Source: Mesotaenium endlicherianum
Taxonomy: Eukaryota
Reading direction: 5' to 3'
Assembly: GCA_009602735.1 (NCBI GenBank)
Contig: WELA01000730.1
Location: 151,583-198,425, forward strand
DNA length: 46,843 nucleotides
The notes under the pieces are model-generated. The model ran no database searches. It was not told the DNA's origin and saw only the letters and a list, made by a program, of their open reading frames with translations. Position numbers and translations under genes: made by a program. Below, piece by piece: positions 13,826 to 43,202 of the stretch (the stretch's first letter is position 1; each line of letters begins with the position of its first letter).

Positions 13826-14724
13826 ATCAGACAAGTACTCAGACAAGTTTGAATGGTGCATACCAGTGCATACTCACTCATACATGCAGCGTTAATCACG
13901 TGGTATTGATCCGAAGCAAGCTGCCACATGGACAATGCATCGAGTTATTGTATGTAATCTAAGGCGCACCCCACGCTGCCGCATGCTGCCCGACGCTCAG
14001 CTATAGTTCGAATTGGCCTGCACAGGCCTGCATGCATGCTCATTGTGTTATGACCTAGTCACGCAGTTAACTCCTCACACGTGCTAAGTTGACTCGCTAC
14101 ACTTGACTCGTCATATAGTTGACTTCATTCAAATACACCAGCTCAGCATGTACATTCAGTCAGCTAGTTCATCTAGTCAGCTAATAACTAGCGCCATTTA
14201 TTCTAGCTGTCAAGACAGCATGTTAAGAATACTTCACACAGATCAATAGCTGAGACCACTAGATCTTGCATCCTCTAGGATTGACATATATTCTAATCCA
14301 TCCATTCACATAGATGACGATGCAGCAGTTCAGTGATCAGCAGCTTAGACTGATCTTGCTACAGCTTCAATTCTTCATGTATAAATGATGACTCTCGCTA
14401 TTGCAAGATCATCCTTCAATCATTTAGCAAAGCTCCTTCAAGTCTTTACTTCTGTATCTACTAAGTACATGCTATCACGTTCCTCAGCTTAGACTACCTA
14501 GGCCCTAATGGCTGAAGGTAGTACTAACTCTTCCTTACACATTGCTCACCTAGCTTGCATGCTTATTTTCAGTATAGTTATAACTTACAATGTGTACCAC
14601 GCTTGATATGGTGGGACACGCGCTATCCGCGAAAGTGGCCGCGGGGTTCGAACTTCGGACTAATAATACGAGGCTCGGACCCTGGGCCTAGCAATGTCGC
14701 AACTGTCCTCCCTTCTGTGAGTAC

Positions 14725-15350
14725 GCTCGCTATCCCTCTTTCGTAAACCCCCCTATCCTTCTTCTCGTAACCCCCCGCCATCCCTCTTTTCGTCCGCCAT
14801 ACCCCCCTATCCTTTTTTCGTGATTCCCCCTATCCCTCTTCTCGTAACCCCCGCCATCCCTCTTTTCGTCCGCCATCACTCTTTTTGTACCCCCCTATCC
14901 CTCTTTTTGTAACCCCCCCTATTCCTCTTTTCGTAACCTCCGCCATCCCTCTTTTCGTCCACCATCTCTCTTTTCGTACCCCCCAAACCCACTTTTCGTA
15001 ACTCTCGCCATCCCTCTTTTCGTCCGCCATCCCTCTTTTCGTACCCTGCTATCCCTTTTTTCATAAGTCCTGGAGCCTACTATCCCTCTTTTCGTTACCC
15101 CCCCTATATCCCTCTTTTCATAACCCCCGCCATTCCTCTTTACGTCCGCTATCCCTCTTTTCCTACCCCCGGGCCCCCTATCCATCTTTTCGTAACCCCC
15201 GGCATCCCTCTTTTCCTCTGCCATCCGTCTTTTGGTACCCTGCTATTCCTTTTTCGTAACCTCTGGTATCTTCCAACGAAACCCCCGCCATCCCTCTTTT
15301 AGTACCCCTGCCTATCCCTTCTCTCGGCCACCCGGCGTTCCCCTCTTCGT
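14725..15350. repeat. Degenerate ~19-24 bp minisatellite, core ATCCCTCTTTTCGT(AACCCCC/CCGCC)
   Basis: More than 20 visible copies; strongly pyrimidine-rich + strand. Confidence 0.9.
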
Positions 15351-17161: not shown

Positions 17162-19066
17162 GTGAGCAAGAATTCCCAAGTCAGCTGGGGATTGAGACCT
17201 GTGAAGGTTGCCGGTGTTCAACCTGGAAGGGGACCCGGAGAAATTCAACTGTATATGCGGTTGAGGAGTGAAAGACTCTACCACTCTGTGGAGCCTGCAG
17301 AAGGTTTTGATTCTAACCAGAGTCCACGAGGAAGTGAGACGTCTGAGCATATTGACAACCGATGGAGTGAGCAACCGTCGAGAGACAAGTCTCGTCATAT
17401 CTCCGCAGGCGGTGAGAACCCGGATAACACACGAGCCTTTGCACTTGATTTGGGCAGAGAGCAAGACGTGTGGGGTGAAGTCAGTAAGTCCTGGTCATCG
17501 TTCAAAATGGCCGGTGATGATTGGGATGAAAATCCTAAGTTCAAGCTATCTGCGAAGTGTTTTAGCGGACAAACCAGCGGAAACGGTCTCACTTTCGAAG
17601 AGTTTGATGAGATCTATTGGGCAGAATTCTTTGAGAAGATCCGGAAGGATTCTTCTTATTCGCAATTTGTCGCCTTTATAGGCTTGGTTCAGTACTTGGA
17701 CAAGGATGTCTTGCTGTTATATCGCCAATTCTGGAAGGATGAGAATCTCTCCCAGGAATGGGCTTGTGGAGAACAGAATAGGGCAAGGAATTTGAAAATC
17801 CAGAAAGAGGCTGCGAAAGCCCGAATGTCTGCTTTATCTTCAAGAAGAACAGTGCCAACTGCACCTGTTGAGAGCATAGACTTAGGTGCACTAACACAAG
17901 AATTAACAGAGGCCATGAGGCAACTCACTGAGGGCCAGCAAAGGGCAGCCACTCAGAATGATGATGCCGGCTCTGTCGCAGAATTGCAAAAGGTGTGTGC
18001 AGAACTGTCTGAAAAGATTGCTAATGCTCAGGAACGAGTAACACGCAAAGCTGCACCTCTCTATGGTCAGCAAGACAATAGCACCACGACAGAGGCAAGC
18101 CATGCGCAAGCCTTGGCTAGCTGTCGTAAGGATATGGAGGCTGGGGATGACCAGCTAGACTCCAAGCATTGCCTGCGTCGTTTCTTTAAATTGCTTGAAG
18201 CACGATTCCCAAAGGATCGCAGTCTTAAGGTACACCATTATGTGCATTTAATCCGTCAGAAGAACAAGACAATCATGGAGGTCAAATCCAGATTGGTAGA
18301 CCTCGCCAAAAAGGCAGAAATCGTTGAGTTGAAAGCTCAGTTTGCGGAACTAAACGAGCCCAATGTCTACTATGATGCAGATAGTGCAGAAAAGGCCGTC
18401 TACAAAGGCGAGAAGCTGATGCCTGAAAAGGCTGTGGACGCAACGGCTGCCGAGCAAGCAGATCACAACCGTCTGGTGCCAAGGAATGCTGGGAAGCTTC
18501 CTCAGACTTTCCGGATGACTTTGGATGAAAAGGAGATCTCGCAGCCACGACAGGCCAGGCCCGGGACGCGTAAGACATTTAGTTTTTTGCTGGAGAAGCT
18601 GAAGGCCCTGGTGGAACACCGGATCCAGCATGCTCCTTTGCTTTCTCTTGCTGATTTGCATATCACTTACCCATTCACGGTTGAAGAAGCCGGACACCAG
18701 CTGGATATAGCTGAGGAAGGTGCGGATAGCGCCTCATTGCCCACCAATTTCAGCACCGTGAGAGTGCAGAACAGGGATGGTGCATTAATCTTCAACAACT
18801 GGGCAGCTCCCAACATTCTGTTGGATACGGGTGCATAGCCAGTCATTTTGGGAAAGCGAGCCGTGAAAGCTCTGGGATTGACGACAAGGGACCTGAAAGA
18901 AAGTCCTTTCCAGCTGAGAATTGCCTCAGGACAAGTCTCAAAGTCTTGTGGGATTACCCGCAAGCCTGTGAAAATCACAGTAAATCCAAGGAAACCTGAA
19001 GAGGCGTCACTACTCATAGAGTGCACAGTGACGGAAGCAGAGAACTCTTGGGAACAGAAGCACTGA
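17162..19066 (+). pseudogene. Retroelement Gag-like plus retropepsin (aspartic protease) region, disrupted
   Basis: Long ORF (likely ATG 17507) reaching ILLDTGA*PVILGK with an in-frame TAG at 18836-18838; the same frame continues to ~19040, then a frameshift before the protease LLG motif. Confidence 0.75.
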
Positions 19067-20535
19067 TTCCCTTGGGTATGGTCATTGATCTGCGGAAGCA
19101 GAGGGTGACTTACCAGTCAACAGATTGGCAGCCGACAGGAGAAATTCGTGTGAAGATGGTTTGCACAGGAGAAGCAAACCACGGATTGCTAGACTGCTGC
19201 GTTAACGACAGGTACCCAGAAGCCGCTGACAACCTCATGAAGCAAGAAGAGGAAGGCTATACGAGCATCAACATGCCAACACCCTTAGTATGGCAACCCC
19301 GACTCATGAAGCAGCTGGAAACTGTGAGTAATAGGGACCGCGGCCCGCAAGAGTTGCTGCCAGTACCCTACCCAGTTACCTCCACTGCAAATTTAATGCC
19401 TAGAGTTGAGCCGCTGCCGCAAGGCATTGTCAGGATGGAAGATCCTTTTCGCAAAAGGGGAGTAGTGGTGTTGGAATTATTTGCCGGACTTGGGTCTCGG
19501 ACCATAGCATTGATCCAGCGAGGAATACAAGTGGCCAAAGTCCTGTATGTGGACAATGACGACCACGCTTTTCTAGCATTCAAAGAAGTCATGAGTCAGA
19601 TGCAGAAAATGCATTATTTTAAAGGATTGGCGCCCGCATATAGCGATGTCGAGCGCATTGCCGAAGGCAACATTATTGATGTAAAGCCTGAAGGCCTGTA
19701 TGGCTACAGGATTGACTGGATCTTTGCTGGATTTCCTTGTCACCCGTTTTCTCAAGCTGGAAACCGGAGGGGATTCAGTGATCCACGAGCACAACACTGG
19801 GGATGGATGGTGAAAATCATCAGCATGCTGCGGGAACGACAGCACTACTACCCATCAGTGTTTGTGATTGAGAATGTGCATCCAGGAATGGATTATAAGC
19901 AGATGAAGCCAGGAGAACCATGGCTGATTTTCGACTCCACTTTGGGCCATCATGTGCTAATCAACGACGCCAAGCACGAAGGATTATCCCATAGGGCCAA
20001 GATATTTTGGATCAACGGCATGTCTATTGAGGTCCTGAGAGAGATGGAGGACATTCCACGGCGACCACCAACAGCCTTGACAGTGGAAGAGGCGCTGGCG
20101 GTGCATACCAGACCAGTGGCCAGGAGGGATTTTTATCCACAGTGTGTCATCAACGAACCAGGTCAGCCAAGGGTGGTATTGCCATCCTTCACAGCATATC
20201 CAAAATCCCGAGCCTTCATAGAAGGTGGACCAAGAATGGTCAAAAACATGCATGAAAGAGACGCTGTTTGGAGAGGGCCCAGTGCGGTGGAGAAGGGCAA
20301 ATGCCTTGGAATACCCGACATCATAGCTCGTCATACAGCCGGTGCTGTAGGGTCAGATGAAGCTGCAAAGATTTTCGGCAACATGATTGGGCAACACTCT
20401 ATGACTTGGTTGGTAGAAACAATCATGACGTGGCAGCAGCTGACCTTCACTGACAAGCCTATGCAGAGGCCAAGACCAGTGACAATTGGGGTCAATGTGG
20501 TGCCAACGTCTGATCAGACATATACTTTTTTCTGA
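19021..20535 (+). CDS. C5-cytosine DNA methyltransferase domain of a retroelement polyprotein; truncated at ~20511 by another LTR
   Basis: Motif I LELFAGLG (19471-19494), IV AGFPCHPFS (PC at 19735-19740), VI FVIENV (ENV at 19870-19878), VIII HRAKIFW, X IFGN (~20377); preceded by the protease C-terminus ELLGTEAL. Confidence 0.9.
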   Translation: MHSDGSRELLGTEALIPLGMVIDLRKQRVTYQSTDWQPTGEIRVKMVCTGEANHGLLDCCVNDRYPEAADNLMKQEEEGYTSINMPTPLVWQPRLMKQLETVSNRDRGPQELLPVPYPVTSTANLMPRVEPLPQGIVRMEDPFRKRGVVVLELFAGLGSRTIALIQRGIQVAKVLYVDNDDHAFLAFKEVMSQMQKMHYFKGLAPAYSDVERIAEGNIIDVKPEGLYGYRIDWIFAGFPCHPFSQAGNRRGFSDPRAQHWGWMVKIISMLRERQHYYPSVFVIENVHPGMDYKQMKPGEPWLIFDSTLGHHVLINDAKHEGLSHRAKIFWINGMSIEVLREMEDIPRRPPTALTVEEALAVHTRPVARRDFYPQCVINEPGQPRVVLPSFTAYPKSRAFIEGGPRMVKNMHERDAVWRGPSAVEKGKCLGIPDIIARHTAGAVGSDEAAKIFGNMIGQHSMTWLVETIMTWQQLTFTDKPMQRPRPVTIGVNVVPTSDQTYTFF

Positions 20536-20987: not shown

Positions 20988-21785
20988 CTCCCCCCCCTCA
21001 TCATGAAGGTAAGGCGCTTACCACTCGACTATCCAAGTCCAGATTTTACGCCTCTCTCGTGCTTGCTTGTATAGGCGCTGATTCTCCTAGCTTCATGTCC
21101 AAGTCTTTGTCATATATCTCCAAATTAGACAGGACATATCAGTCCCATAACACTTGGTCTCCTCCTCATAGGTCCGTATCCACAAAGTCGTAGTCTCCAT
21201 CAAGCGACGATAGTAGTCTTCACAAGGCATGAGCGTGTAAGCTCGCCAAACTCCATCATAGTCTCCTTCTTGGCTAGATGCTCACTCCCACATACTCCTA
21301 GTCCTCCTTGAAGGTAAGCCTTGGCACCAGGCTCCAAGAAACACATTTGGAACACCTCCAAGAACTCCATAACTTGGGCATACGCACATACTCTTAGTTC
21401 TTGCACCTCATCTTGTGCACGCACACACATGGTCTTGCAAGCGGGCTTCTCTTGAGCTCACTTTCTAGGAGCTCCTCCACTTGAGCAGTTGGGGTCTGCT
21501 CTATATATGAGCAAGGGGATCATACACCTCTACTTGCTCCACCAGCGATGCGCGCTCGCCAAGGTTGTTAGGACGCACGCTTGCTACATGCGATGACCAG
21601 GCCAAGGTCACCAACACAAGCGCTTCTCCTTCACCTTCACCTTCCCGCGTCGCTTCTTTGCTAGCGGGCTGAAGATGGCTACTTGTGGTCTTATCTACCT
21701 CCACCTATTTCACTATCTTCACTTGACCATACTCCTCCTTGGTCTTCACTTGACCCGTGCACTAAAGCACTAGAGGATAGGCTAT
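20988..21785 (-). mobile_element. PPT and decayed internal remnant of the same element
   Basis: Polypurine tract abutting the LTR; stop-riddled sequence. Confidence 0.4.
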
Positions 21786-22733
21786 TGTGACGTTTCTGCT
21801 TTTCGAGAGGATCTTTTCCTCGGTCTTCAAGGAATATTTAATTGAAGTGGAAAGAAAATCTACATACTTGTGCAAATTGACAAATCCTCGAGAAAGCGAA
21901 AATGAAAATTAACGTAAACTGTGTGCTTGTGAGAGTTGCACTCACAATGACTCTACAGGTATTTATACTTGCACACTGTGAGGCACTGGAGTGCTTCGAG
22001 TCACCACCTAGGGCACTGGTTCATGTCAACGAAATCAGGCAAAAGGGTACGACCCATTTCGGCTGAATGCTCAAAACGCGCCGTTTGGCCGTTTGGAGAC
22101 TTTTTGACGGTTTCCGAAAAACCGTTTCGCGCCAAACGGGCGTTTTCGCGTTCTCCCGACTTTCCAAGAAGTTGCGACTGTTCGCGGAGTCGCGTACACA
22201 TGCTTTCGTCATGAACCGGTAGTTTAAAAAGCTACTTTGGCCAATCGGTTAGGTGTGAACGCTTCACTGACAAGTCGCGTGTTCGAATCCGCTCGGATGC
22301 AAAGCGACTTTGCATATTTCGTTTCGTCTGACTCTTACGGCTATTTGTTTGTGTTAATGATACGGCTGTTTGTTCGTATTAACGACTGGTCGTAAATTCA
22401 AAATTTGTGACTGAGCATTATTCGAAATAATGACAATCAAAATAACTTAATCAAACAATGATTGATTAAGTCATCATCTCATAATTTAATCAAAGTAACT
22501 TTATGAATAATTATGTCATACTTTTGCGAAGTAGTCAAATTACGTTACGACGCTTTTTGCAATAGAATCTCGGTCGTTTCGCCAATCGACTGGGAATTAA
22601 TCGGCACACGCGTGTGACGAATAATTGAATGTGATGCAATCATTTATCAAATAATGTATGATAAACAGTATAACGTATTTTAGGAAATTTGGGAAAATGT
22701 CCAAAATACGCCTAAAAAGCTCAAATCGTTACA
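21786..22733 (-). repeat. Family B 3' LTR (~948 bp)
   Basis: TGTGACG...CGTTACA on +, homologous to 27989-28978; adjacent PPT ctcctcccccttaaaa at 22734-22749. Confidence 0.9.
22231..22315 (+). promoter_or_regulatory. tRNA-like Pol III type-2 promoter (A box, B box) plus hairpin, inside the family B LTR
   Basis: TGGCCAATCGG (22238-22248), GTTCGAATCC (22281-22290), ATGCAAAG-cga-CTTTGCAT (22297-22315). Confidence 0.6.
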
Positions 22734-22874
22734 CTCCTCCCCCCTTAAAAGAACTTAACGTCCTCGTTAAGCGTACGTCTTTCAAGTTTTAAATGTGTCA
22801 ATATTAGCCTTGGCTAGCGGAAAGCACTGGTGAGCGATTGGACTACGCATCATGACAGTGACGGAAAAGAGCGA

Positions 22875-25800
22875 TTAGTTTGCCGCGTCTCTTTTGCGTT
22901 TGTTCCTTGGCTTACGAATTGCACCGAGTAGCACACTTGCCGTCGTACAGAGCTGTTGAACGATAGCCCATCGTAACCAATATTGTTGAACCAGGTCCTT
23001 ACAATTAAGTAGGAATTCGTCCTGAGGTTCGTACGAGTTCCAACTGGAATCGTAATCAAGCCACTTTATCAAAAGCTCCACGCGTAGAGGCTTATGATGA
23101 GTGTAGCGGTGTCCTAAGACCTCCTCTACATCCCAGGCCTTATCATCATCAGCGAGTTCCAATTCGGGTGCTTGTGGCTTATAGCGGCCATTGGACCTAA
23201 ATAGCTTAAGTAAACTGACATGGAACACAGGATGCGTTCGCCCCATGTATTCAGGCAAATCCAGTCGGTATGCAACAGGGCCAACCTTTGCGATAACGAT
23301 AAAAGGGCCTACCCAGCAAGGCAGAAGCTTGCACTTTCCTGGGTGCTTGAGTTGGAGGTTTTTAGTTTGCAAATGTACTTTATTGCCAACTTGAAAACTT
23401 AACTTAGTCCTGCGTGTGTCAGCAAACGTTTTCTGCCGATCTCGAGCAGCGGCTAAAGCCAGCTTCGCGTTTTTGTGCACCTCTTGAAGAGAATGGACAA
23501 ATAGGCGTGCAGTTGGCACTCTCATGGTTGACAGCCCCGCCTCAGCGTAAACGACGCGCGTGAGAGGAGTGTGCGGATGTTGCCCATAGTCAAGGAAAAA
23601 TGAAGTTTCCTTAACACTTTCCTGATAAGCATTATTAACTGCGAACTCTGCGATTAAAAGGAGGGTGTCCCAGTCGTCTTGGCAAGGATTAACATAATGC
23701 CTAAGGAACTGTTGCAAAACGCGGTTCATTCGTTCTGTCTGACCATCGATTTGAGGATGGAAGCTAGTCGACATCTTAAGTTTTGTGCCGAAGTGCGAGC
23801 AAACTTCCTGCCAGAATTGGCTCGTAAATCTAGTGTCACGATCACTTATGATCTCTTTCGGCATGCCATGCAACTTGAACACGTGATCTACGAAGAGACG
23901 CGCGGTCTCGACGGCATCAAGTGATGGTTTAGTGGCCACAAAAAGTACCATCTTAGTGAAACGATCTACGACCGTTAACACCCCATTGTGTCCTCTATCG
24001 GTGTTAGGCAATTCCACGACAAAGTCGAGGCTAATGCTTTCCCAAGGAGCACATGCAAGTTCCAATGGTTGCAACTTCCCAGCTGGCAACGTGTTGCTCG
24101 GCTTATTCCTTTGACTTGTTGCGCAGTTGACGATGTACTCGGCAACATCAACCTTAAGGGACGGCCAAATGTACCCTCGGCGCAAAGTGTGTGGTTTTGG
24201 TAATTCCATGGTGACCTGAGTAAGAAGAGTCATGCGCTTCTCGTAGTAGCACATGTCTTACTCGGCCTTCTGGGACAGCAATGCGCCCATTGTGCCACCA
24301 AGAACCGTCCTCAAACAAAAAGTCTGAGTGTTCTTTCCTTTTATCCATACTGTCCATCGTCACGGCTACATCGCTCAAGTCAGTTCCCTAGAGATCTAGG
24401 AAAAACGGATCTTTGAGATAGCCCTCATGAAATAGTTGATGCAGGTCAAGTACTTCACAGGTTTGCATGCTACCCAAATCGGGTTGGCCCGCGTCACCAG
24501 GCCGTGCAACGCCAGTCGTCTGGGGGGGTACAGCAGAATCAAGGGTGGCCGCCCTTGAAACCTGACCGTTTCGTCCTTGCAAACTAGCAACAGTCCCCAA
24601 CATCAAGTGGTGAAGGGGAATTCGACTTAGAGGGTCCGCAACATTATTGCGACCAGGGCGATACGACCAGTTAAAGTGGAATCGTTGCAAGAACTCAGAC
24701 CATCTCGTCTGGCGCCTCGATAGCGTTGGCTGTATTTGAAAGCAGGGATTTGGGCAGTGATCCGTAACCACTGTTGAACCCTTGCAGCCTTCCAAATAAC
24801 ATCGCCAAGTCTTTAAAGCGTATATGACTGCCCAGAGCTCCTGCTCTGTCGTTGAGTAATTTTGTTCGGCAGGTGTCAGCTTTCGACTATCAAAACTGAT
24901 AGGCTTGCCTGCCTGCAGCAAAACAGCCCCTATTCCAACACCGGACGCATGGGCGACTACCTCGTAAGGCAAGTTGGGACCGGCTAACGAAAGAAGTGGC
25001 GCATTAGTGAGTGCATACTCAATGTGCTCAAACGCATGGTGCGTATTCTCATCCCAAGTGAACGGCTTATCTTTCCTTGTCAGAGCAGTGAGTGGCGCGG
25101 CCATCATTGAATAACCTTACATAAACTTACAAAAGTAATTAGCAAACTCGAGGAATGAACGTACAACATGTACATCTTTTGGGACAGGCCAGTCAGCGAC
25201 GCACGCAATTTTGGCTGGGTCAGGGCGCACCCCTTTCGAACCCACTATATGTCCCAAGTACCTCAGTTCATCCTTTAGGAAGGAACATTTCTTGAGCTTA
25301 GCGTACAGCTGTTGCTCACGAAGGATTTGCAACACCAACTCGAGGTGCTTGTAATGCCCGTCCCTGTTCTTTGAATAGACGAGGATATCGTCGACGTAAA
25401 CCTGGACAAGGTTCCCCAAGTAAGGTCTAAACAAATCGTTGATTGTACTTTGGAATGTTGCTGGTGCATTGGTAAGTCCAAAACTGAGGAATTGTATTGG
25501 AAGTGCCCAATAGGCGTACGAAACGCTGTTTTGGGGACATCCTCTGGTGTGATTCGAATTTGATGATAGCCTTGGGCTAAGTCAAGCGAGGACAACACGC
25601 ACGCCCCCTGCAACAAATCAAACAAATCATCAGTGCGAGGCAACGAGTAGCGGTTCTTGACCGTTATGTTGTTCAACGCACGATAATCAATGCACATTCT
25701 AAGCGTCCCATCTTTCTTTTGAACAAATAGGATGGGGGCGCCGAATGGAGAAGAGCTCGGATCAATCCATCCTTTCTCCAGCAAGTCGCTAATTTGGTCT

Positions 25801-26834
25801 TTCATTTCGTTCATCTCCAACGGGCTTAGGCGATAAATTGGTCGCCAAGTCGGTTGAGAATTGGGAAAGAGAGGGATTGTATGTCCAATACCCCTGTCAG
25901 GCGCAAGCCCGGCGGGTATTTCACTTGGAAACACTGATTTGTACTTTTGCAAAAGAGCAAAAAGTTCAGCTGTGAGGGTTTCCTCACGACCAGTAACGTC
26001 TATCATTGGCTCTTGCGTAAAGAGCGTAGTTGAAGTTGCTGGGGAATCGGGTCTTAGTAATCCAAAGAAAACATTTTGACCGTGGTTTGCCAAACGTCGA
26101 GCTTGCTTTATGGACAATAGAAGAGTCTTTGAAGGACTATCCAACGCCATAGCGGGCTTAAGGGACTAAAGGGTAAACTTCTTGGTCCCCTTGCGTACAA
26201 TGCATGTCTTTTGACTAAAGTCAAGCAATGCACTTGTTTGCGTAAGCCAATCATTACCAAAAACTGCGTCGATTCCATGCGGCAATTCAGTGACGTAGAA
26301 TTGTACGTGGCCGATGTATGACTGCACTTTTACTCGCAACTTAATCGATCCGATAATACAAACTAACAAGCCATCGCCAAGGCAAAGGGTCTCGTCCTTG
26401 AGTATTGGAAGCAACTTCATCCCTTGTGCAAAACGTGCACTAATGAAGCTTACTGATGCGCCTGAATCAATGACTGTGAAGCATGAACTGCCTGAAACTT
26501 TCGCGTCAAACGTCATGCTTAACCCCAAAGAAGCATTATGCATCACCAACAACGTCCTCGCCGTGAGAGGAATGTGGGAAATGTGGAGGTCCTTTTTCAA
26601 AATCCCATTTTGCATTGCTGTCCTTACGCGTAACCGAGTAATCGGGTTAGAGTACGCGCGAATATGTGTAAATGCACTAATATAAGTTGGTGCAAGACAC
26701 TTATGCATTTTCCTTAATCGAGATAAGTGTGCGTAACACTTGGCAAGGTTAGGATCATGCGGCTGGAAGTGCAAGAACATGGTATCATGGATGCACTCGA
26801 GTTCCTCAAACTCGTCAAAGCTCAACACTTGCAT
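22875..26834 (-). pseudogene. pol: Family B pol (protease, RT, RNase H, integrase, chromodomain) in frameshifted pieces
   Basis: [22 protein letters not shown] and YVDD; RH ASGVGIGAVL...TDH; INT SLDFV, SDRD, GQTER, VGPF; chromodomain WDVEEVL...IKWLDY. ORFs 26166-26834, 25275-26150, 25117-25434, 24388-25107, 22875-24254. Confidence 0.92.
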
Positions 26835-27769
26835 ACTAATATATTCCGAACGAAATATATCAATATCAGGTATGCCAGAGTGAACAAGAACCTTTGGTGC
26901 GAGCGCACAAACACCTAGAGTTTCCTACTCACTAAGTAGTGTTGGCAACAACTCAGAAGAAATTGGCACTTATCAAGTTAAATGCAATGTCAATCTTGAC
27001 ATGATTTGAGTGAGAGTTGTGATAAGCAGGGCAGTGTTCTTAACGTTTTCAAGCTCAAATCCATGTGAGAGGGGTGAGTCACAAATGGACGAGATAGAAC
27101 AGATGCAAAAGCATTGTGCCAAAGCAATAGAGAAAGGGAAACAATCCACAAACTCAAATGATAAGCGACAAAATCAACCCAATGTCAAAGAAACATGTCA
27201 AATCTGGTCAAAATGGGACCAAATACGGACGACAAGGTTTTGAATCCAGAAATTGTGCGCGCGAGTCAATTCTCGTAGAATGACAACAAGTGCGACAATG
27301 TCATGGAAGAGACCCGTGGGCAAAAATCCTTTGTGTATATCACAACACGCGCATAGCAACCAAGAACACAAGGTGGGTGGGATGGGTGGGGATGAGAAAG
27401 AAAGTCCCCTATGGACCCTTTTGGTGTGCAACGGTGCAAAAAGCCCCAAACGGGTGCAGATTTTGACTTAAATATGTGCAAGGGACTGAAGAAATAGGAA
27501 CCCTTCACCACAAAAGTCGAAATCGTCTGAAAAAGAAACAAGCGGCGTTGTTAGTAACGGCGAAAAAAGAAAGGTTCAATGGAAAAAACTCCAACAGCGC
27601 CTAGTTGGCCTAAGGGACCGTTGAGGTTGTCGCCGTGGCCAGCGGCAAGAGCGGCATCATTGCAGTTGCACCAACAACGGTTGCGTTGGCGCCGGCGTAA
27701 GGATTTTTCCGGAAATCCTAGGAAACGCTGGAAAATGGAGAAAAAATACCCCGTCAAAAGTGGCTACGA

Positions 27770-27893
27770 GAAGCGACCGTAGGTTCAGAGCAGAATTGGG
27801 ATGGGTGACCGTCCAGTTTGAAGAATTGCCCCAAACACATTTCTACGATAAGCGACCGTAGCCCAGGGCAGTACTGAGATGGGTGACCGTCCA
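27770..27893 (+). promoter_or_regulatory. Two 5S-rRNA-like internal control region copies in the family B leader
   Basis: TAAGC-N15-CAGTACT-GAGATGGGTGACC at 27849-27888 matches plant 5S TAAGC-N15-TAGTACT-AGGATGGGTGACC; a more diverged copy at 27770-27810. Confidence 0.65.
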
Positions 27894-27975
27894 ATACCAA
27901 AAATACCCCGAAATATGTTTTCCCAGAATGTATTCCAACCACTAAAAAAAAAATTCCTTGGAGAAACCGAGATTG

Positions 27976-27987
27976 GCTCCGATACCA
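27976..27987 (-). other. Primer binding site (tRNA-iMet) of family B
   Basis: TGGTATCGGAGC on the minus strand, 1 nt from the LTR end. Confidence 0.9.
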
Positions 27988-27988
27988 A

Positions 27989-28978
27989 TGTGACGTTTCT
28001 GCTTTTCGAGAGGATCTTTTCCTCGGTATTCAAGGAATATTTAATCGAAGTGGAAAGGAAATCTATATACTTGTGCAAATTGACAAATCCTCGAGAAAGC
28101 GAAAATGAAAACTAATAGAATTTGTGCTTGTGAAAGTTGCACTCACAATGACTCTTGCAAGTATATATACTTGCACAACGTGAGGCACTGGAGTGCTTTG
28201 AGTCACCACCTAGGGCACTGGTTCATGTTCAACGAAAAACGGTTGAATTGGACATAACCAAGTCGGCCTAATACTCCCACCGCGCCGTTTGGCCTTTAGG
28301 AGACTTTTCGACGGCTTCCAAAAAACCGTTATACGCCAAACGGGCGTTTTCGCGTTCGCGCGACTTTCTGAAAAGTCGCGATTGCTCGCGCGGTCGCGTA
28401 CGGATTAATTCGACATAAACCGGTAGGGATAGTAACGACTTTGGCCAATCGGTTAGGAGTGAACATTGTCAGCGAAAGGTCGCCGGTTCGAATCCGTCAA
28501 AATGCAAAGTAACTTTGCATATTATATTTCGTTTGACTTTACGACTATTTTCGGAACCGCGACGCGCTGACCGGGACGTCGCGGGACCGGTGGCTCCCTT
28601 GGGCCACAACTTGGTGTTTTCTTACGGGTTAGCGACATGTCGTTAACCGAAAACAATGACTGTTAATATCCGAAATAATGAAAATTATATCAACTTAATC
28701 AATCCGAGAATTATTACGTTATCATCTCATAATTAATCAAAGTAACTTTGTGAATAATAACGTCGTACGCTTGCGAAGTAGTCGAGTTACGTTACGACGC
28801 TTTTTGCAATAGTATCTCGGTCGTTTCGTCAATCGACCAAGAATTAATCGGCACACACGTGTAGCGAATAATTGAATATGATGCAATCATTTATCACATA
28901 ATACGATAAATAGTATAACGTACTTTAGGTAATTGGGAAAACGTTCCAAATACGCCTAAAATAGCTCGGATTGTTACA
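27989..28978 (-). repeat. Family B 5' LTR (~990 bp)
   Basis: TGTGACG...TGTTACA; homologous to 21786-22733 but visibly diverged. Confidence 0.9.
28434..28520 (+). promoter_or_regulatory. tRNA-like A/B box plus hairpin in the second family B LTR
   Basis: TGGCCAATCGG (28442-28452), GGTTCGAATCC (28485-28495), ATGCAAAG-taa-CTTTGCAT (28502-28520). Confidence 0.6.
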
Positions 28979-31262
28979 TAGGCGTCCGAAACGCTGTTTT
29001 GGGGACATCCTCTGGTGTGATTTGAATTCGATGATAGCCTTGGGCTAAGTCAAGCGAGGAGAACATGCATGCCCCCTGCAACGAATCAAACAAATCATCA
29101 ATGCATCAGTGCGAGGCAACGAGTAGCGGTTCTTGACCGTTATGTTGTTCAACGCACGATAATCAATGCACATTCTAAGCGTCCCATCTTTCTTTTGAAG
29201 AAATAGGATGAGGGCGACCAATGGAGAAGAGCTCGGATCAATCCATCCTTTCTCCAGCAAGTCGCTAATTTGGTCTTTCATTTCGTTCATCTCCAACGGG
29301 CTTAGGCGATAAATTGGTCGCCAAGTGGGTTGAGAATCGGGAAAGAGAGGGATTGTATGTCCAATACCCCTGTCAGGCGGAAGCCCGGCGGGTATTTCAC
29401 CTGGAAACACTGATTTGTACTTTTGCAAAAGAGCAGAAAGTTCAGCTGTGAGAGTCTCTTCATGACCAATCACGTCTAACATGGGCTCTTCCGTTAGTGG
29501 AAGTGACTGGAGAAGCAGGTCGCAGTAATCCAAAGAAAACATTTTGACCTCGTTTTGCCAAACGTCTAGCTTGCTTGATGGACAATAGAAGAGTCTTTGA
29601 AGGACTTTCTATGGTCATATCGGGCTTAAGAGACTGGAGAGTAATCTTCCTTGTCCCTTTGCGAACAATGCATGTCTTTTGACTAAAGTCAAGCAATGCA
29701 CTCGTTTGCGTTAGCCAATCATTACCAAAAATTGCGTCGATTCCATGCGGCAATTCAGTGACGTAGAATTGTACGTGGCCGATGTATGACTACACTTTTA
29801 GTCGTAACTTAATCGTTCCGAGAATACAAGCTAACGAGCCATCGCCAAGGCGAAGGGTCTCGTCCTTGAGTATTGGAAGCAACTTCATCCCTTGTGCAAA
29901 ACGTGCACTAATGAAGCTTACTGATGCGCCTGAATCAATGACTGTGAAGCATAAACGGCCTGAAACTTTCGCGTCAAACGTCATACTTAACCCCAAAGAA
30001 GCATTATGCATCACCAACAACGTCCTCGCCGTGAGAGGAATGTGGAAAATGTGGAGATTCTTTTTCAAAATCCCATTTTGCATTGCTGTCCTTGCGCGAA
30101 ACCGAGTAGTCGATTCAGAGTACGCGCGAATATGTGTAAATGCAGCAATATAAATTGGTGCAAGACACTTATGCATTTTCCGTAATCGAGATAAGTGTGC
30201 GCAACACTTGGCAAGGTTAGGATCATGCGGCTGGAAGTGCAAGAACATGTTATCATGGATGCACTCGAGTTCCGTAAACTCGTCAAAGCTCAACACTTGC
30301 ATATTAATATATTCCAAACGGAATATATCAATATCGGGTATGCCAGAGAGAACAAGAATCTTGGGTGTATGCAAACATACACCTAGAAGTTCTTGCTCAC
30401 TAAGTAGTGTTGTCAGTAGCTCAGAAGGAGGCGCAATGACTGGCTCCTGAGCTACGTCATCGGGACTATACCGCAAATCCTTTCTTGAAGGACACGTTTT
30501 AAAGGTATGTCCCTTTTTGCCACATGAAAAACACATACTTGGCGCCACCATGTGGGGACGAGTCTCGGTGTTATCAATCTTGCGAGGCTTTAGAGCATGT
30601 CCTTGTGGGTTGGCAATGTTTCCGCTTTTGGAAGGGTTATGCTGTTTCGGACGTCCCTTACGAGATGTATGAAAACCGGTATGAGGAGGACGTTTAGTGC
30701 AAACAGGCTGACGACGAGACTGTACGGCTGGCTCCTTTTGTTGTCTCGTCTCGCGAGCTACAGTGGACTTTGGGCGACCTTGAAATTCTTCAGGCGGGGA
30801 GGGTTTGTGGGTAGGCGTCGATGCCGAGACCTGCCGAGGGGTGGCAAGTGGGAGAGGCTGAAGAGTAACGTCGCCAGCGGTCCCAGATGTGCTAGCAACC
30901 CCCTGGACAGCCTGCAAGTATGAACGAATCGCGATGTTAATAACCATCTTGGAAACAAAGCGACTGTGCGCAATGAACGTGGCGAAAAAAGGGTTCAACG
31001 GAAAAAATTCCACAGCGCCTAGTTGGCCTGAGGGACCGTTGAGGTTGTCGCCGTGGCCAGCGGCAAGAGCGGCATCATTGCAGTTGCACCAACAACGGTT
31101 GCGTTGGCGCCGGCGTAAGGATTTTTCCGGAAATCCTAGGAAATGCCGAAAAATGGAGAAAAAATTTCCCGTCAAAAGTGGCTACGAGAAGCGACTGTAG
31201 GTTCAGAGCAGAACTGGGATGGGTGACCGTCCAATTCTAAGAATTGCCCCAAACAGATTTCT
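28979..31262 (-). pseudogene. Family B copy 2: leader, partial gag (zinc knuckle), protease and RT N-terminus
   Basis: CFSCGKKGHTFKTC knuckle, [18 protein letters not shown]; homologous to 25511-26960 and 27555-27845; a third 5S-like box at 31188-31228. Confidence 0.88.
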
Positions 31263-32133: not shown

Positions 32134-32852
32134 TGTAATGAATCAGTATATTGGTAGATATAATAATCATTTAAATATAATAGTTAATTAAGTTCAGCCT
32201 GCTGAACTTTACGTAGTATGTAAGTCTGCTGGACTTTATATAGTTATCAGTTTAAGGACTCAGTCGGAAGCAGCAGGCTGAAGTCAACTTAAGTCAGCTT
32301 GCTGACACATTCTTTGACAGCCAGCTGACTTCCGTACTCGGTAGCAGCGAACTGCCTCGATATGCATCTAAGTGTGGTATGCTAGATAAATGGCAAGATG
32401 ACATTCCTATGATGGATGGCGATTCGGGATGATGGGAGATGGCGGTGGATTTGGTTAACCGAGGTCCTACCAACGTGGTTAACTCCCGGGTAGGTGGTGC
32501 CATCGCACTGGCCGTTGAACAGTAAACTCATTCCATGTACATATGCTAGGATTGCTCTCGAGTTCGGCATTCGGAAACGAGGCCAACTCTCTTGTACAGC
32601 TTACTTAGAGAAATCTGAATCCAAGGCGAGAAGCCATTGATACGCATTGTCTTCCAACCTTGCTTATGTACGAGTTTACAGATTGCATTATTGATGCTAG
32701 TTTACTTGCATTTGACTTACGAGTATTATTCACTGCTAGTGTGTTGTCCTTTGCCATTTAACCAGTTAACGGAAAATACCATAAAGATTACTTGCTGATA
32801 TAAAGATCTTTATTAATTGTTAATCGCCTATTTGGTAAGTCGATTCATTTCA
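32134..32852 (+). repeat. Family C 5' LTR (plus-strand copy, 719 bp)
   Basis: TGTAATGAATC...GATTCATTTCA terminal inverted repeat; PBS TGGTATCGGAGC at 32854-32865. Confidence 0.95.
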
Positions 32853-32886
32853 GTGGTATCGGAGCAGTTATCACAGTCTTCTTTGT

Positions 32887-34268
32887 ATGGTAAGGACAAG
32901 GTCTCAAACTAGCAACTCCCGAGACATGGAGAACCAGGATAACGAGAATGTCGAAAACCAGGCGAAAAGCCATGTAGCGGGAACCCGCACCTATTCTGAA
33001 GTAGTGGCAGATACTGCAGCTAGAAAGGCTGCAGATGTGGCAGCTGCTATTGCCGCAGTCGCAGCACAGCAAGCTGAGCAAGAGAGAGCCGGATTAGAGG
33101 CTGAACAATTAGCAAAGGCTGCTGAAGATACAGAAAGGAGGGAAGGACAGCCAGCTGACGAGCGCACGGTTGAAGAACTTATGGCATCCAGGGCCAATGT
33201 TCTTAACCCACCTCCTGCTGTACAACTCAATGTACCCCTAGGTCAAATACGTGACCGGCTGAATGCGGCAGGAATTGCTGCTGCAGGAGCGAGAGGGACT
33301 GTTGAGGACACTACTCAGCGAGTGGATGCCACTGCTGCTGCTGCATTTGCTAGACTTCCACCCCAGAGTGTAGACTTGGGAGCATTGTTCGTTCAAATGC
33401 AGTCGCAAATGGCGACCATGTATCAGTCCCAACAGGAGGACAAAAGAATCATAATGTCTCTACTGCGGGACAGAGACCAACTGGGTTCTCAAAGCACTGG
33501 TGGTGGTGGAAGAGGGCCTAGTAAGCCTAAGCCGAAACCTCCCCAGGACTATGATCCTGAGCGAAACAAGAAATATTTCCTGATCAATTTTCTCGTTGAT
33601 GTTGAGCAGTGGCTGGAGAACTATCCAAAGCTGCAAGATTACGCGAAGGTCAGGCACACCGGTGCGCTACTGAAAGGCAGTGCCGCAGACTGGTGGCAAT
33701 ACTAGAAAGGAGAGCGTAACGCTCAGAAACTCGGTGACCCTACGTGGGTAGTGTTTGTCGAGAAGTTGCATGAGAAGTTTGATGTCATCAACCAGCAGGA
33801 GAAAGCTATCTATGCAATGATCTCCTTGACACTGAAGCAGACCACTTCAGTTGCTGAGTTTGCTCAAAAGTTCCAAGAGAACATGATGAAACAGCTAGAC
33901 TTGCCAGAACGGTACAGGATAGCATACTTCAGGTATGGCTTGAAATACGAGGTCTCTGGTCATTTTGCTGAGAAGACGTATGAGAAATATGCTGACTTGA
34001 TCCAAGATGCTGATGCTTGGGATCAGCAGCAATTCAATTACAAGCGCCAGAGTAATGCTTTGGTATCTAAGGTTGTCAAAAAGCCCCACGGTTCCTACAA
34101 TGCAATTGAAGGAGACCAGGCTGAGGATGATCAGGGTGATGAATATGGGTATGAGTACAATGCTATGCAGTCTAGAGGGAGAGGTGGTTTCTCTCGAGGC
34201 GGCTATGGAAGAGGTGGTGGTAGGACTAAGCCGAGACCAGCCTCATCAAAATCAATTTGCTTCCATTG
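32887..34268 (+). pseudogene. gag: Family C gag with a premature TAG at 33703-33705, cut in the zinc knuckle by the next insertion
   Basis: Near-identical to gag at 40831-42309; ends ICFHC at the LTR junction. Confidence 0.92.
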
Positions 34269-34988
34269 TGAAATGAATCGACTTACCAAATAGGCGATTA
34301 ACAACTGATAAAGATCTTTATATCAGCAAGTAATCTTTATGGTATTTCCGTTAACTAGTTAAACGGCAAAGGACAAATCACTAGCAAGGAATAATACTCG
34401 TAAGTCAAATGCGAGTAAACTAGCATCAATGATGCAAGTCAGCAAAACTCATACATAAGCAAGGTTAGAAGACAGTGCGTATCAATGGCTTCTCGCCTTG
34501 GATTCAGAGTTCTCTCAGTAAGCTGTACAAGAGAGTTGGCCTCGTTTCCGAATGCCGAACTCGAGAGCAATGCCTAGCATATGTACATGGAATGAGTTTA
34601 CTGTTCAACGGTCAGTGCGATGGCACCGCCTACCCGGGAGTTAACCACGTTGGTAGGACCTCGGTTAACCAAATCCACCGCCATCTCCCATCATCCCGAA
34701 TAGCCATCCATCATAGGGATGTCATCTGGCTATTCATCTAGCATATCGCACTTAGATGCATATCAAGGCAGTTCGCTGCTACCGAGTACGGAAGTCAGCT
34801 GGCTGTCAAAGAATGGGTCAGCAAGCTGACTTATATGGACTTCAGCCTGCTGCTTTCGGCTGAGTCATTAAACTGATAATTATGTAAAGTCCAGCAGACT
34901 GACTATTAACTAAAGTTCAGCAGGCTGAACTTAATTAACTATTATATTTAAATGAATATTATATCCACTAATATACTGATTCATTACA
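34269..34988 (-). repeat. Family C 3' LTR (720 bp)
   Basis: Reverse complement of 32134-32852; PPT AAGTTGGAGGGAT adjacent at ~34989-35001. Confidence 0.95.
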
Positions 34989-35101
34989 ATCCCTCCAACT
35001 TAACTTGTTGTCGCCTCGACAACATTAAACTGCAGAAATTTTAAATAAGGGAACTGAACCTGACCAGCCTCCCTTACTGACTGCCTCTTCAGCGTGTCAC
35101 C

Positions 35102-36778
35102 TTAAGGGGTTGTTCCTGGGGCTTCAGAATCAGGAGACGGAGATCTGGACCTAGATCTGGACAGCCCTCTAGGTCTGTCAGCTGGCCTTCTAAAGAACCC
35201 TGTTTGCTCTAAAGTTGGCCCTCGAGGAGAACGGAGGATGGTGGCCTGCTCTTCAACCACTTGGGTGTTGATTCCCACATAGACAGGCATTCCAGTAGGA
35301 TGCTGAAATACATTGGCTAGAGGTACATGCCCCTGAGCGGAGGGGGAGGCTGGCATACCTCTGGCCCACCCGCGTGTCCCTCTTCTGGCACCCCTGTCCT
35401 CTGGGGATTTCTGTCTGTGTCTGCTGCCCAGTACAGTCAGATCAGCTTCTTCCCCTGCTTGGGCAGGTGGGCTGGGGGAGCGAGCGCGGGGTCCAGTTGT
35501 CGCCATAACGGGGATCACATTCCACACACCTGATCGTGGTTCTTTAGGAAGTGCCACTGCCTGTCCCTGGGTATCCTGAGTACCTGCTGCTGATGCTTCT
35601 CCTCTGCCTTGTTCTTCTTCCTCATCCTCCTCATCCTCCTCCTCGGAGAGAGTAGGGGTCTCGTCCACTAAGTCGTCCTGCTCCCTAGTAGACATGGAGT
35701 AGTCTACCGACCTCCCTTTCTTAGGGCGCGCTGGAGGTTGCTTGGCCTTCAGCCTACTGATATCTATCCGGCCTGCATTCTTTGCCCATTTGACAAAGGC
35801 ATGCTTTCCCTTAGAGAAGTACTCTCTTCCCCTCCTCCTATGTTCCTTGGTCTCTGCATTCATATTGCTCAGGCATCCATTCAGCCTGGGGTCCCAAGGG
35901 GCAATGTGAGGTGGTAGGATGAGATAGCCGTCTAGGCCATAGTGGAAGTCATCCGGTTGGGCTCGGTCACACTCCTGCTTCTTATTTGTGACGGTCATCC
36001 ACCTCCAGTCTGTTGGCTGCTGGTAGTACTGGGGTCCGTGCTCAGCCTTCCTCAGTTTACACGGGAACCAGTGGGGAGAGAACATCTGCTGTCCTGCTTC
36101 CCTGGCCAAGTACTCCCAGCTCCTTCTCTCAACTTCATTGTAAGCTGGCAGGAGTGTGAGGTAGAATACCGTATCCTTAAAGCTATCGGGCCGCATGCTC
36201 ACCATCCGGATGAGTCTCTGATCTCCCACTATTCCCGGTATGGGGACCGGCTTGTCCTCTGAATCATCTGCGAGATACCGGGCCTGCTCTGCTGTATAGC
36301 CCACCATCTTAGCATAATCTTCGTAAAGGACCACGCCGGTGTGTGTCTCGATGTACCTGTCCAGTGCTGTAGCTCCTTCCTTCTGTAGCAGTGTTGTCTG
36401 TTCCAGCCTGTTGATCTCCTGGGCTGCCAGCAATGCTTCCTTCAGGTTATCGAAGTTTTGGCCACCCACCACAGTATACCTGTAAGTGGCCAAGCTCTTC
36501 TGTCTGTCCGCTTCAATCTTTTTTCTTTTCTCCTCTTCTGCCGCTGCCGCTTCTTCTTGCTGTTTCTTCTGTCTCTCCTCCTCAGCCTTCCTGAGGTTTT
36601 CCGCTTCCTGATCCTTCTTCCTCTGTGCCTCTTCTGCCGCCTCTTGTTGTTTGCGGACCCTTTCTTGTTCTCTCCTGGTGAGGGACGTCGCCGCCAGCTC
36701 CTTCTGGTATTGCTCCATTGTCCTCCTGGCTTCTTCTGCCTTGCGCTTTCTGTCCTCCTTTTGTGTGGTGGGCGCCAT
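35102..36778 (-). CDS. Extra sense ORF (~558 aa from MAPTTQ) between pol and the 3' LTR; function unknown
   Basis: Long intact ORF in both tandem copies; charged coiled-coil N-terminus, aromatic-rich core, acidic and RS-rich tail; ATG at 36778 follows a TGCAG acceptor. Confidence 0.85.
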   Translation of the reverse strand: MAPTTQKEDRKRKAEEARRTMEQYQKELAATSLTRREQERVRKQQEAAEEAQRKKDQEAENLRKAEEERQKKQQEEAAAAEEEKRKKIEADRQKSLATYRYTVVGGQNFDNLKEALLAAQEINRLEQTTLLQKEGATALDRYIETHTGVVLYEDYAKMVGYTAEQARYLADDSEDKPVPIPGIVGDQRLIRMVSMRPDSFKDTVFYLTLLPAYNEVERRSWEYLAREAGQQMFSPHWFPCKLRKAEHGPQYYQQPTDWRWMTVTNKKQECDRAQPDDFHYGLDGYLILPPHIAPWDPRLNGCLSNMNAETKEHRRRGREYFSKGKHAFVKWAKNAGRIDISRLKAKQPPARPKKGRSVDYSMSTREQDDLVDETPTLSEEEDEEDEEEEQGRGEASAAGTQDTQGQAVALPKEPRSGVWNVIPVMATTGPRARSPSPPAQAGEEADLTVLGSRHRQKSPEDRGARRGTRGWARGMPASPSAQGHVPLANVFQHPTGMPVYVGINTQVVEEQATILRSPRGPTLEQTGFFRRPADRPRGLSRSRSRSPSPDSEAPGTTP

Positions 36779-37045
36779 CCTGCACATGTAACCAGGGCAC
36801 AAGTTAGTAGGATATGGACCTTTGTCATAGGGATTGCAGGAAGTATGTTAGTATTTAGTATAGTGGCTTCGCTGCTGTTTACCTTACAGGATGATTGCTA
36901 AAAGTTGACGTAGTTGCGATGCGCTACACATAAACGTATGAGTGTGTTTTTATCGCTCTCGCTCACTAACTGTCATATATTTTCCCCTCCAACTTAAATG
37001 GAGACAGGACCGCCTGTCACCTTCCCGTGTCAACTGAAATGACAG

Positions 37046-40000: not shown

Positions 40001-40876
40001 TGCAGCAGTAGGGTGCTCCGGAGGGCTTACCTTTTTCTCAACCACTTCTTCAGGTTGAGGAGGTACCTCTCTTAGCAGCAGACAGAACATTCTGTCTTCC
40101 TTCTGGTTCCAGCTTTTGACGAACTCCATTGCATTCAGCAACTTGCATCCTTCTGGAAGCCTCTTCTTTTCCTTCATTTGCCATCCACACAGGACAAGAG
40201 GAAGAGCACTGGTGGGTGCCAAGTCAGTCTGCCCATCACTGGCTCCTCTCACTTTAACTGTACCTCTGCTCCAACACACTTCAGCTTGATGTCTATTAAG
40301 CCAGGACCTGCCTAGCACGAGATCATAAAAGCCAGTGTTGAGTACCTCAAATGTAAGCGTTTCAGTTAGAACTGCAATGCCAGAACCTAACTGGACCTCA
40401 ATAGGCTTGGTTATAACTCCTCCCGGGATACTTGAGGCATCTCCAAGGAATATTTTTCTATTCCCTTGGGTGACAGTAGGCAGCCTTAGCCGCTTAACTA
40501 AGTCCTTGTGAATAAAAGTATGTGACGCCCCTCCGTCAACAAATGCCCTCACCTTCCTACCTGCAATCATGCAATGCAGTAGGATAGGGGGGACTGTCTT
40601 TTCCTGACTTTCGCATTGTTCTCCTGACGTAGCAAAGAAATGTTGGACATCAGGTGGAACAAGAGCATCCAGAGTGTGCACTCTCTGGACGTCTATATTA
40701 CTGATGGTCTCCTTTATCTGTTTGTCAGGCATGCATAGTGAATCCAGTTCAGCAGGACCCATAATACCTGCTACGAGGGCAGCTAGTGACGACTCACTAT
40801 CTCTAGCATCCTCACAGTCAGTAGACTGGATTACTGACTGTTGCTGTCTTTTAAAGGCTGGTCTTTTCTCTCGACC
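37046..40876 (-). CDS. pol: Family C Pol polyprotein (PR-RT-RNase H-integrase-chromodomain); frame is open from 40876, first ATG at 40762
   Basis: [35 protein letters not shown] zinc finger, SMDWV, SDRD, GQTER, GPY; chromodomain YEVDEILD...YLIRWKGY...DTWE. Confidence 0.97.
40814..40855 (-). promoter_or_regulatory. -1 programmed ribosomal frameshift signal between gag and pol
   Basis: Slippery U_UUA_AAA (40855-40849), 7-nt spacer, perfect 10-bp stem ACAGUCAGUA/UACUGACUGU (40841-40814); pol is in the -1 frame. Confidence 0.8.
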
Positions 40877-42309: not shown

Positions 42310-42330
42310 ACAAAGAAGACTGTGATAACT

Positions 42331-42342
42331 GCTCCGATACCA
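42331..42342 (-). other. Primer binding site (tRNA-iMet) of family C
   Basis: TGGTATCGGAGC on the minus strand. Confidence 0.92.
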
Positions 42343-42343
42343 C

Positions 42344-43089
42344 TGAAATGAATCGACTTACCAAATAGGCGATTAACAATTAATAAAGATCTTTATATCA
42401 GCAAGTAATCTTTATGGTATTTTCCGTTAACTGGTTAAACGGCAAAGGACAACACACTAGCAGTGAATAATACTCGTAAGTCAAATGCGAGTAAACTAGC
42501 ATCAATAATGCAAATCAGTAAACTCATACATAAGCAAGGTTAGAAGACAGTGCGTATCAATGGCTTCTCGCCTTGGATTCAGATCTCTCTCAGTAAGCTG
42601 TACAAGAGAGTTGGCCTCGTTTCCGAATGCCGAACTCGAGAGCAATGCCTAGCATATGTACATGGAATGAGTTTACTGTTCAACGGTCAGTGCGATGGCA
42701 CCGCCTACCCGGGAGTTAACCACGTTGGTAGGACCTCGGTTAACCAAATCCACCGCCATCTCCCATCATCCCGAATAGCCATCCATCATGGGGATGTCAT
42801 CTGGCCATTCATCTAGCAGGTGGTACTTAGATGCATATCAAGGCAGTTCGCTGCTACCGAGCACGGAAGTCAGCTGGCTGTCAAAGAATGTGTCAGCAAG
42901 CTGACTTAAGTTGACTTCAGCCTGCTGCTTTTGGCCGAGTCATTAAACTGATAATTATGTAAAGTCCAGCAGACTGATTATTAACTAAAGTTCAGCAGAC
43001 TGACTACTAACTAAAGTTCAGCAGGCTGAACTAAATTAACTATTATATTTAAATGAATATTATATCTACTAATATACTGATTCATTACA
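42344..43089 (-). repeat. Family C LTR shared by two tandem units (746 bp, with a ~26-bp internal duplication)
   Basis: PBS on one side and PPT (43090-43102) on the other; duplicated taactaaagttcagcag. Confidence 0.95.
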
Positions 43090-43202
43090 ATCCCTCCAAC
43101 TTAACTTGTTGTCGCCTCGACAACATTAAACTGCAAAAGCCTTAAATAAAGGAACTGACCCTGACCAGCCTCCCCTACTGACTGTCTTTTCAGCCTGTCA
43201 CC

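Follow-up and report, generated by a model that had tools for sequence, protein, structure and literature searches.

The element and its two LTRs

The window analyzed here, a 46,843-nt stretch of Mesotaenium endlicherianum DNA, contains a Ty3/gypsy element at 21786-28978 that lies on the minus strand within a nest of other LTR elements. This 7.2-kb element encodes protease, reverse transcriptase (RT), RNase H and integrase in that order, followed by a C-terminal chromodomain, and carries LTRs, a primer-binding site (PBS) as well as a polypurine tract (PPT); all tested class features are present, and the element is a chromovirus. Its pol is interrupted by stop codons and one frameshift in the ORF table, and the chromodomain at the integrase end shows three aromatic cage residues (W..W..Y) in translation. 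The best matches to the integrase are 41-52% identical, the named ones coming from Closterium, Volvox and Haematococcus. The parts of the element are:

21786-22733, minus strand: LTR A, the element's 3' LTR (TG...CA, 948 bp)
21960-21967, minus strand: putative Pol II TATA box of LTR A, with a twin at 28162-28169 (function suggested by sequence)
22734-22750, minus strand: PPT, recognized from sequence
22875-26924, minus strand: pol, with protease, RT, RNase H, integrase, SH3 and chromodomain (Pfam, ORF table)
27973-27987, minus strand: PBS, whose first 12 letters equal the internal start of Helenus-1_SMo
27989-28978, minus strand: LTR B, the element's 5' LTR (990 bp, different subfamily)

We take the PBS at 27973-27987 to be of the tRNA-iMet type.

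The two LTRs are identical at 774 of 945 positions (82%), with identity reaching 93% at the predicted R/U5 end, 62-77% in mid U3 and 85% in distal U3. The element is flanked by GCTAT to the left of LTR A and TAGGC to the right of LTR B, with no target duplication in common. The left flank belongs to another repeat family, and other copies continue differently at this point in contig loose ends (runs X7, X5 and X20), while the right flank lies inside the RT of a sister copy that is 92% alike. This sister copy (28979-31262), into whose RT LTR B is inserted, is without a 5' LTR of its own. A single insertion as the source of both LTRs is ruled out by the missing target duplication, the 82% identity and the flanks from different families. 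Since the LTRs are only 82% identical and share no target duplication, they represent two subfamilies, and the element is probably a recombinant between these. The two-subfamily origin of the pair makes a comparison of LTR A with LTR B informative.

Several other features of the window were recorded. A host RCC1 exon at its start matches land-plant proteins, and a near-perfect 1996-bp tandem duplication, real or an assembly artefact, occupies a GC-rich gene region at 4199-8160. Among transposons lies a 511-aa stop-to-stop ORF (19000-20535, plus strand) in which Pfam recognizes a C-5 cytosine DNA methylase domain (E 1e-15), possibly a transposon-borne methyltransferase; a near-length search returned no relative at E<=0.001, and Atlas leads at 0.86 point to methylase clusters, one of them mostly Streptophyta. 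Upstream of it, a 558-aa ORF (17162-18838, plus strand) has no Pfam match. A second chromovirus family (family C) fills 32134-46843 with nested and inverted copies, including a 1276-aa open pol (37046-40876), a 581-aa ORF without Pfam match (35102-36847, twin at 43203-44948) and palindromes at 37240-37291 and 45341-45392.

A probable decayed tRNA fragment antisense to the element

Both LTRs contain, on the plus strand, a cassette resembling part of a tRNA gene:

22231-22296, plus strand: tRNA-derived segment of LTR A, with D-arm, variable-loop and T-arm remnants and no acceptor or anticodon stem
22238-22248, plus strand: A box of LTR A, with no variant at or above 5%
22280-22290, plus strand: B box of LTR A; position 22280 reads G in 99% of family depth
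28435-28500, plus strand: tRNA-derived segment of LTR B, with A box 28442-28452 and B box 28485-28495

An earlier note on this DNA had described an A box and a B box in both LTRs, identical in sequence while the intervening letters have diverged and oriented antisense to the element, and our analysis confirms this arrangement at near-tRNA spacing. The A box, TGGCCAATCGG at 22238-22248 and 28442-28452, is identical at 11/11 positions, and the B-box word GTTCGAATCC, found at 22281-22290 and 28486-28495 as its sole two matches in the window (0.06 expected), at 10/10; the inter-box stretch is identical at 18/26 positions and the letters after the B box at 1/6. The base preceding the B-box word is T in LTR A but G in LTR B and in 99% of family depth, and with the family-majority G at 22280 the B box becomes the full 11-letter consensus. 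Both boxes retain their CpG. The distance from T8 to G53 is 43 and 44 nt in the cassettes, compared with 46 nt in tRNAs with the same D-arm word (52-nt matches). Taken alone, the bare A- plus B-box consensus is a weak signal: 41% of window-sized shuffles, and 1% of LTR-sized ones, contain one pair or more. The cassette is antisense because pol, PBS and PPT all place the element on the minus strand. The TATA-like word lies about 265 bp from the cassette and faces away from it; its minus-strand position places the cassette in the predicted U3, pointing away from the Pol II start.

Since structure models penalize decayed stems, we turned to a profile that uses sequence alone, drawn from 60 tRNAs that belong to two unrelated bacterial genomes; tRNAs with the cassette's D-arm word were excluded, and one of 61 was left out because of a stray character. 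In this search the cassettes rank first and second in the window, LTR B at 17.0 bits (E 1.7e-4) and LTR A at 9.9 bits (E 0.028), above all shuffles (30 window-sized shuffles reached 8.1 bits at best, 300 order-2 shuffles of LTR composition 5.6); the third-best match in the window scores 4.9 bits. A weak T-arm-like word at 14661-14638 on the minus strand (4.9 bits, E 1), where no A box was seen and which adjoins a degenerate tandem array at 14722-15330, is probably a chance match.

The sequence profile places the cassettes at the top; dedicated tRNA finders do not recognize them, and the cloverleaf is lost. ARAGORN reported no tRNA gene in the cassettes, and at lowered thresholds it returned noise in which they were not singled out. 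Rfam RF00005 scored 12.3 bits on LTR B, under its cut-off of 29 and with broken pairs; it had no match on the LTR A cassette and nothing at E<=10 across 21700-29100. An intact tRNA gene is ruled out by the missing acceptor and anticodon stems, the lack of an ARAGORN gene and the sub-threshold Rfam score. The results support the derivation from a tRNA: the cassette would be what is left of a tRNA gene that has decayed and lost its cloverleaf, while its two promoter boxes stayed intact. Folding of the cassette as a unit gave z between -1.9 and 0.1 over both strands, nothing unusual.

A loose pattern of D-arm plus T-loop recovered 35 public loci (37 matches) containing 36 ARAGORN tRNA genes, and LTR B aligned to those tRNAs lacks one base on each D-stem strand. 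The tRNAs with the cassette's D-arm word, all from prokaryote or virus collections, are for Asp (19), Ile (12), Met (3), Gln (1) and Thr (1). The exact two-box pattern had no match in metagenome and viral contigs. Among 93 related chromovirus loci, none contains the strict tRNA-like pattern, and over their 506 kb the tRNA profile yields no significant score (the highest is 9.9 bits, E 0.31); because just 52 of the 93 show a PPT-like tract and TG with 200 nt beyond, and identity is 29-49%, this negative says little about the range of the cassette. Intron-bearing ARAGORN calls in these loci were rejected as false positives.

Palindromes and a CCAAT word around the cassette

The cassette is accompanied by short palindromic sequences, none of which has an assigned strand:

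22228-22238: second AAAG-N3-CTTT dyad, adjoining the A box
22297-22315: palindrome of LTR A (the earlier note's hairpin), with 8-bp arms and a 3-nt spacer
22492-22502: third dyad, within a block identical between the LTRs
28502-28520: palindrome of LTR B
28739-28749: further dyad of LTR B

The 8-bp stem with a differing loop described earlier is present in both LTRs (arms 8/8 and 8/8, loop 1/3); by chance, 13% of LTR-sized shuffles also contain an 8-bp stem. In LTR A, 26% of depth differs at the spacer bases 22305 and 22306, and the 5' arm does not vary. The motif AAAG-N3-CTTT occurs five times in the two LTRs (22228, 22301, 22492, 28506 and 28739) and seven times in the window, with 1.2 expected; the remaining matches are one duplicated site in another family. 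Together with 22301-22312, the dyad at 22228-22238 forms an 11/12 direct repeat around the tRNA core. Among SINE features no tail was seen, and the direct repeat is also a reiterated motif. Being a reiterated dyad, the hairpin probably does not belong to the Pol III unit. Its fixed spacer length, free spacer sequence, lack of any compensatory change seen and remote copies agree less with an RNA stem than with a site bound by a dimeric protein. Shortly downstream of the palindrome, LTR B alone carries a 46-bp G+C-rich insertion (28553-28598).

The A box, with its LTR B twin, is also the window's only match to the NF-Y CCAAT consensus, with a weaker copy at 22577-22588. Within U3, these palindromes and this CCAAT word probably act as separate enhancer sites for Pol II.

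Abundance and conservation of the cassette

Variation across the family was read from public contigs aligned to the LTR, by way of variant tables. In run X1, possibly the window's own source, 2376 contigs align to the LTR; their summed depth, which peaks at both boxes, is 45,000-52,000 over the cassette, 41,500-43,400 in adjoining bins and 50-100 for single long contigs. Although summed contig depth is no copy count, we infer with fair confidence that the cassette-bearing LTR exists in hundreds of copies. Contigs of two other studies (X5 and X7) span both boxes; for the X7 contig, 8 of 9 differences are listed, and those 8 lie outside the boxes. Other LTR blocks reach 258,000-287,000 in depth compared with 45,000-52,000 at the cassette, so some subfamilies may be without the cassette region or have diverged there. 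About 3% of aligned contigs continue into unlike sequence, and the 6 listed of 60 loose ends are all LTR-like. The idea that the segment is a SINE present in only a few LTRs, which the earlier note had named as one possible refutation, is not borne out, as the LTR to which the cassette belongs is a high-copy one in public contigs.

Contig variants at or above 5% fill 21 rows, with none in the A box and one place in the B box, 22280, where LTR A is the outlier; of the others, 8 places lie upstream, 8 between the boxes and 2 in the palindrome spacer. Within 22190-22307 (a choice with small end effects, and excluding 22262 as near-fixed), 0/22 box sites are polymorphic compared with 17/88 others (p=0.016), a contrast drawn from contigs that are not independent copies and whose clipped divergent ends conceal variants. 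It weakens to p=0.039 without 4 low-depth places, and merging linked sites as well brings it to p=0.11. Between LTRs A and B, 21/22 box sites are identical compared with 245/352 locally (p=0.005), or p=0.07 when set against the whole LTR. The non-box bases 22291-22296 and 22249-22261 are likewise without a 5% variant, and in contig loose ends A-box position 9 is changed in 15-16 contigs and the B box broken in 6. The selective retention proposed earlier has moderate support, which loses strength under the stricter counts; selection on the boxes is likely, not proven.

CpG content

The LTRs are rich in CpG, with observed/expected ratios of 1.61 and 1.82 (p 3e-4 and 4e-7), compared with 0.91 in the family interior, 0.81 and 0.43 in family C and 0.44-0.62 in three other segments. 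The excess covers most of U3 (22089-22733 and 28291-28978) against an A+T-rich background, and most neighboring elements are depleted. CpG transitions between LTR A and LTR B number 18/114 compared with 35/195 other transitions (odds ratio 0.86); in two family C pairs, pooled, they number 17/125 compared with 56/812 (odds ratio 2.1), and the difference has p=0.04 in a comparison of ten pairs of which none is significant alone and for which the family C pooling was chosen afterwards. The excess fits escape from CpG methylation, though it does not show it. Since it extends across most of U3 and the interior is undepleted, it need not stem from the cassette.

Discussion

The cassette points along the wrong strand to promote genomic RNA, the sense strand contains 57 runs of four or more T, and strand likewise rules out the cassette as a primer. 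Since orientation and length exclude Pol III promotion of the element's RNA, the boxes, if selected, would serve something else.

The reading that we put forward, at somewhat less than even chances, is that the cassette is retained as a docking site for TFIIIC or Pol III, which would hold the Pol II promoter of the LTR in an open state with little methylation. The family's ancestor would have captured the fragment from a tRNA gene or from a SINE with a tRNA head, which was copied into both LTRs through normal reverse transcription; the cloverleaf would then have been lost, while both boxes were kept antisense in the predicted U3. TFIIIC, which binds A and B boxes according to PMC13578239, would bind here, and the resulting barrier would keep the LTR's Pol II promoter open in silenced chromatin. 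In fission yeast, tDNA barriers block heterochromatin in either orientation (PMC2040200). Chromodomains with an aromatic cage are linked to H3K9me binding (PMC6317226); the element's chromodomain likely steers it to H3K9me chromatin, where an open U3 would be a gain. Of the three functions that the earlier note had put forward, the barrier gains indirect support from the CpG excess and the group I chromodomain, and the integration target gains none here. In a bolder version, which strikes us as doubtful, the tRNA-derived barrier would be an anti-silencing device that travels with this heterochromatin-targeting element, leaving its LTRs CpG-rich and free of methylation in hundreds of copies as neighboring families decay.

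Alternative explanations are taken here in descending order of probability. The captured fragment could serve Pol II only, its A-box letters being kept as an NF-Y CCAAT word amid a dyad enhancer and its B box remaining passive. The A box as the window's only match to the NF-Y consensus, the weaker copy at 22577-22588, the fivefold dyad in the two LTRs, and one subfamily that in contig loose ends retains CCAAT yet alters A-box position 9 all agree with this; the B box does not, since it is identical at 10/10 positions between subfamilies while its neighbors diverge (1/6 after it, 18/26 between the boxes) and, in 99% of depth, has all 11 letters of the consensus. We consider this account unlikely.

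It is a little harder to credit that the cassette is a passenger under no selection, left by an old piece of a tRNA or SINE that became fixed in a founder LTR and whose apparent conservation reflects a young dominant subfamily and alignment bias. Conservative counts give weak significance (p=0.11 and 0.07), the LTR pair contains 28 identical runs of at least 10 nt, several of them longer, copies with broken boxes exist, and the 11/12 direct repeat could be an old target duplication. The subfamilies are nevertheless 30% diverged locally, with losses that fall in the stems and spacer and spare the boxes, and the CpG is kept in both boxes.

Compatible with the docking-site reading, but improbable in itself, is an active Pol III promoter that produces a short antisense RNA regulating the element, self-limiting or as a decoy. 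Both boxes are intact, an A-rich stretch lies directly upstream in LTR A, and the 25 nt after the T-arm hold 8-9 T, similar to the approximately 8 given for algal tRNA genes in PMC13578239. Yet the first T4 lies at 22522 in LTR A and at 28548 in LTR B, predicting RNAs of about 290 and 115 nt with no conserved terminator; no conserved fold is seen (z -1.4 and -1.3), and the downstream body is the least conserved part (65/105). Because terminator position and body differ between the subfamilies, a conserved antisense RNA is doubtful. Reads on 22150-22345 numbered 1, 0 and 0 in three raw RNA runs, of which two were poly(A) and one was PCR-selected, that were 6-13% read and whose controls gave no organism signal.

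The last two alternatives are both very improbable. A tDNA mimic attracting integration of the family's own or other elements would parallel Ty3, which reportedly targets Pol III genes (10.1101/2021.07.27.453949), but no insertion lies beside the cassette in either LTR of the window, the two junctions seen are in an RT region and another family, and the integrase bears a chromodomain. A chance look-alike built from recurring U3 words, in keeping with cassette-like words at 22577-22588 and 22188-22195, the lack of an ARAGORN call and the lack of an Rfam match in LTR A, is opposed by scores of 17.0 and 9.9 bits compared with at most 5.6 in 300 order-2 LTR-composition shuffles and by the 36 ARAGORN tRNA genes in 35 public loci that the D-arm plus T-loop pattern recovered.

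Among known systems, the closest parallel is Helenus, a tRNA-type TRIMp3. According to PMC10886601, Helenus, like the element described here, has a tRNA-derived segment with A and B boxes in its LTR, conservation centered on the boxes, a non-functional tRNA structure and a proposed origin by SINE insertion into an LTR. Helenus differs in being non-coding and 311-1263 bp long, whereas our element is 7.2 kb, encodes pol and has a predicted TATA-type promoter; in consensus records such as Helenus-1_SMo and LTR-11_DR, moreover, the tRNA part lies on the PBS/PPT strand and can drive genomic RNA, whereas here it is antisense. Membership in Helenus/TRIMp3 is thus rejected: the boxes are present, but the element is neither a non-autonomous TRIM (under ~1.3 kb) nor carries its cassette in sense orientation. 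The same paper (Kojima 2024, PMC10886601) remarks that "not a few LTRs" in Repbase include partial tRNA, analyzes TRIMs only among these, and argues that an autonomous partner has to rely on Pol II and would probably not have LTRs of this kind in common with them. Cassandra and Ajax, of the 5S type of TRIMp3, also have a Pol III internal promoter in the LTR, but it is derived from 5S rRNA, the elements are non-autonomous, and the Pol III transcript of Cassandra is the element's RNA (same paper).

The tDNA/TFIIIC barriers of fission yeast (PMC2040200) likewise involve A/B-box DNA affecting adjacent chromatin independently of orientation; together with the B2 SINE boundaries (PMC8136502), they differ in being host genes or SINEs of yeast and mouse. 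The mouse B2 boundary halts the spread of open chromatin and involves CTCF (PMC8136502). No LTR-borne or algal tDNA barrier is described in the parts of these two sources that were examined. Chlamyvir-type algal chromoviruses share the Ty3/gypsy order of PR-RT-RH-IN-chromodomain, the aromatic cage and a tRNA PBS (PMC6317226); our element has no relative above 52% identity, the likeness resting on best-hit names, and the 93 related loci have no cassette. A literature search, outside whose scope lay most subscription journals and the Repbase entries, found no antisense tRNA cassette in an autonomous LTR, and the cassette in this chromovirus LTR appears to be a new variation on the tRNA-in-LTR theme.

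For the Pol III cassettes known from LTRs (Cassandra, Helenus and Ajax), the explanation given is that they promote a tiny element without coding capacity. If our reading is true, TRIMs that bear a tRNA part could plausibly have descended from a state like that of the antisense cassette; a neutral cassette would be a captured fragment of an ordinary kind. The barrier reading can be tested on hundreds of natural copies whose boxes are intact or broken, and if that reading holds, a cis-acting barrier would be a protein-free way for a retrotransposon to resist host silencing.
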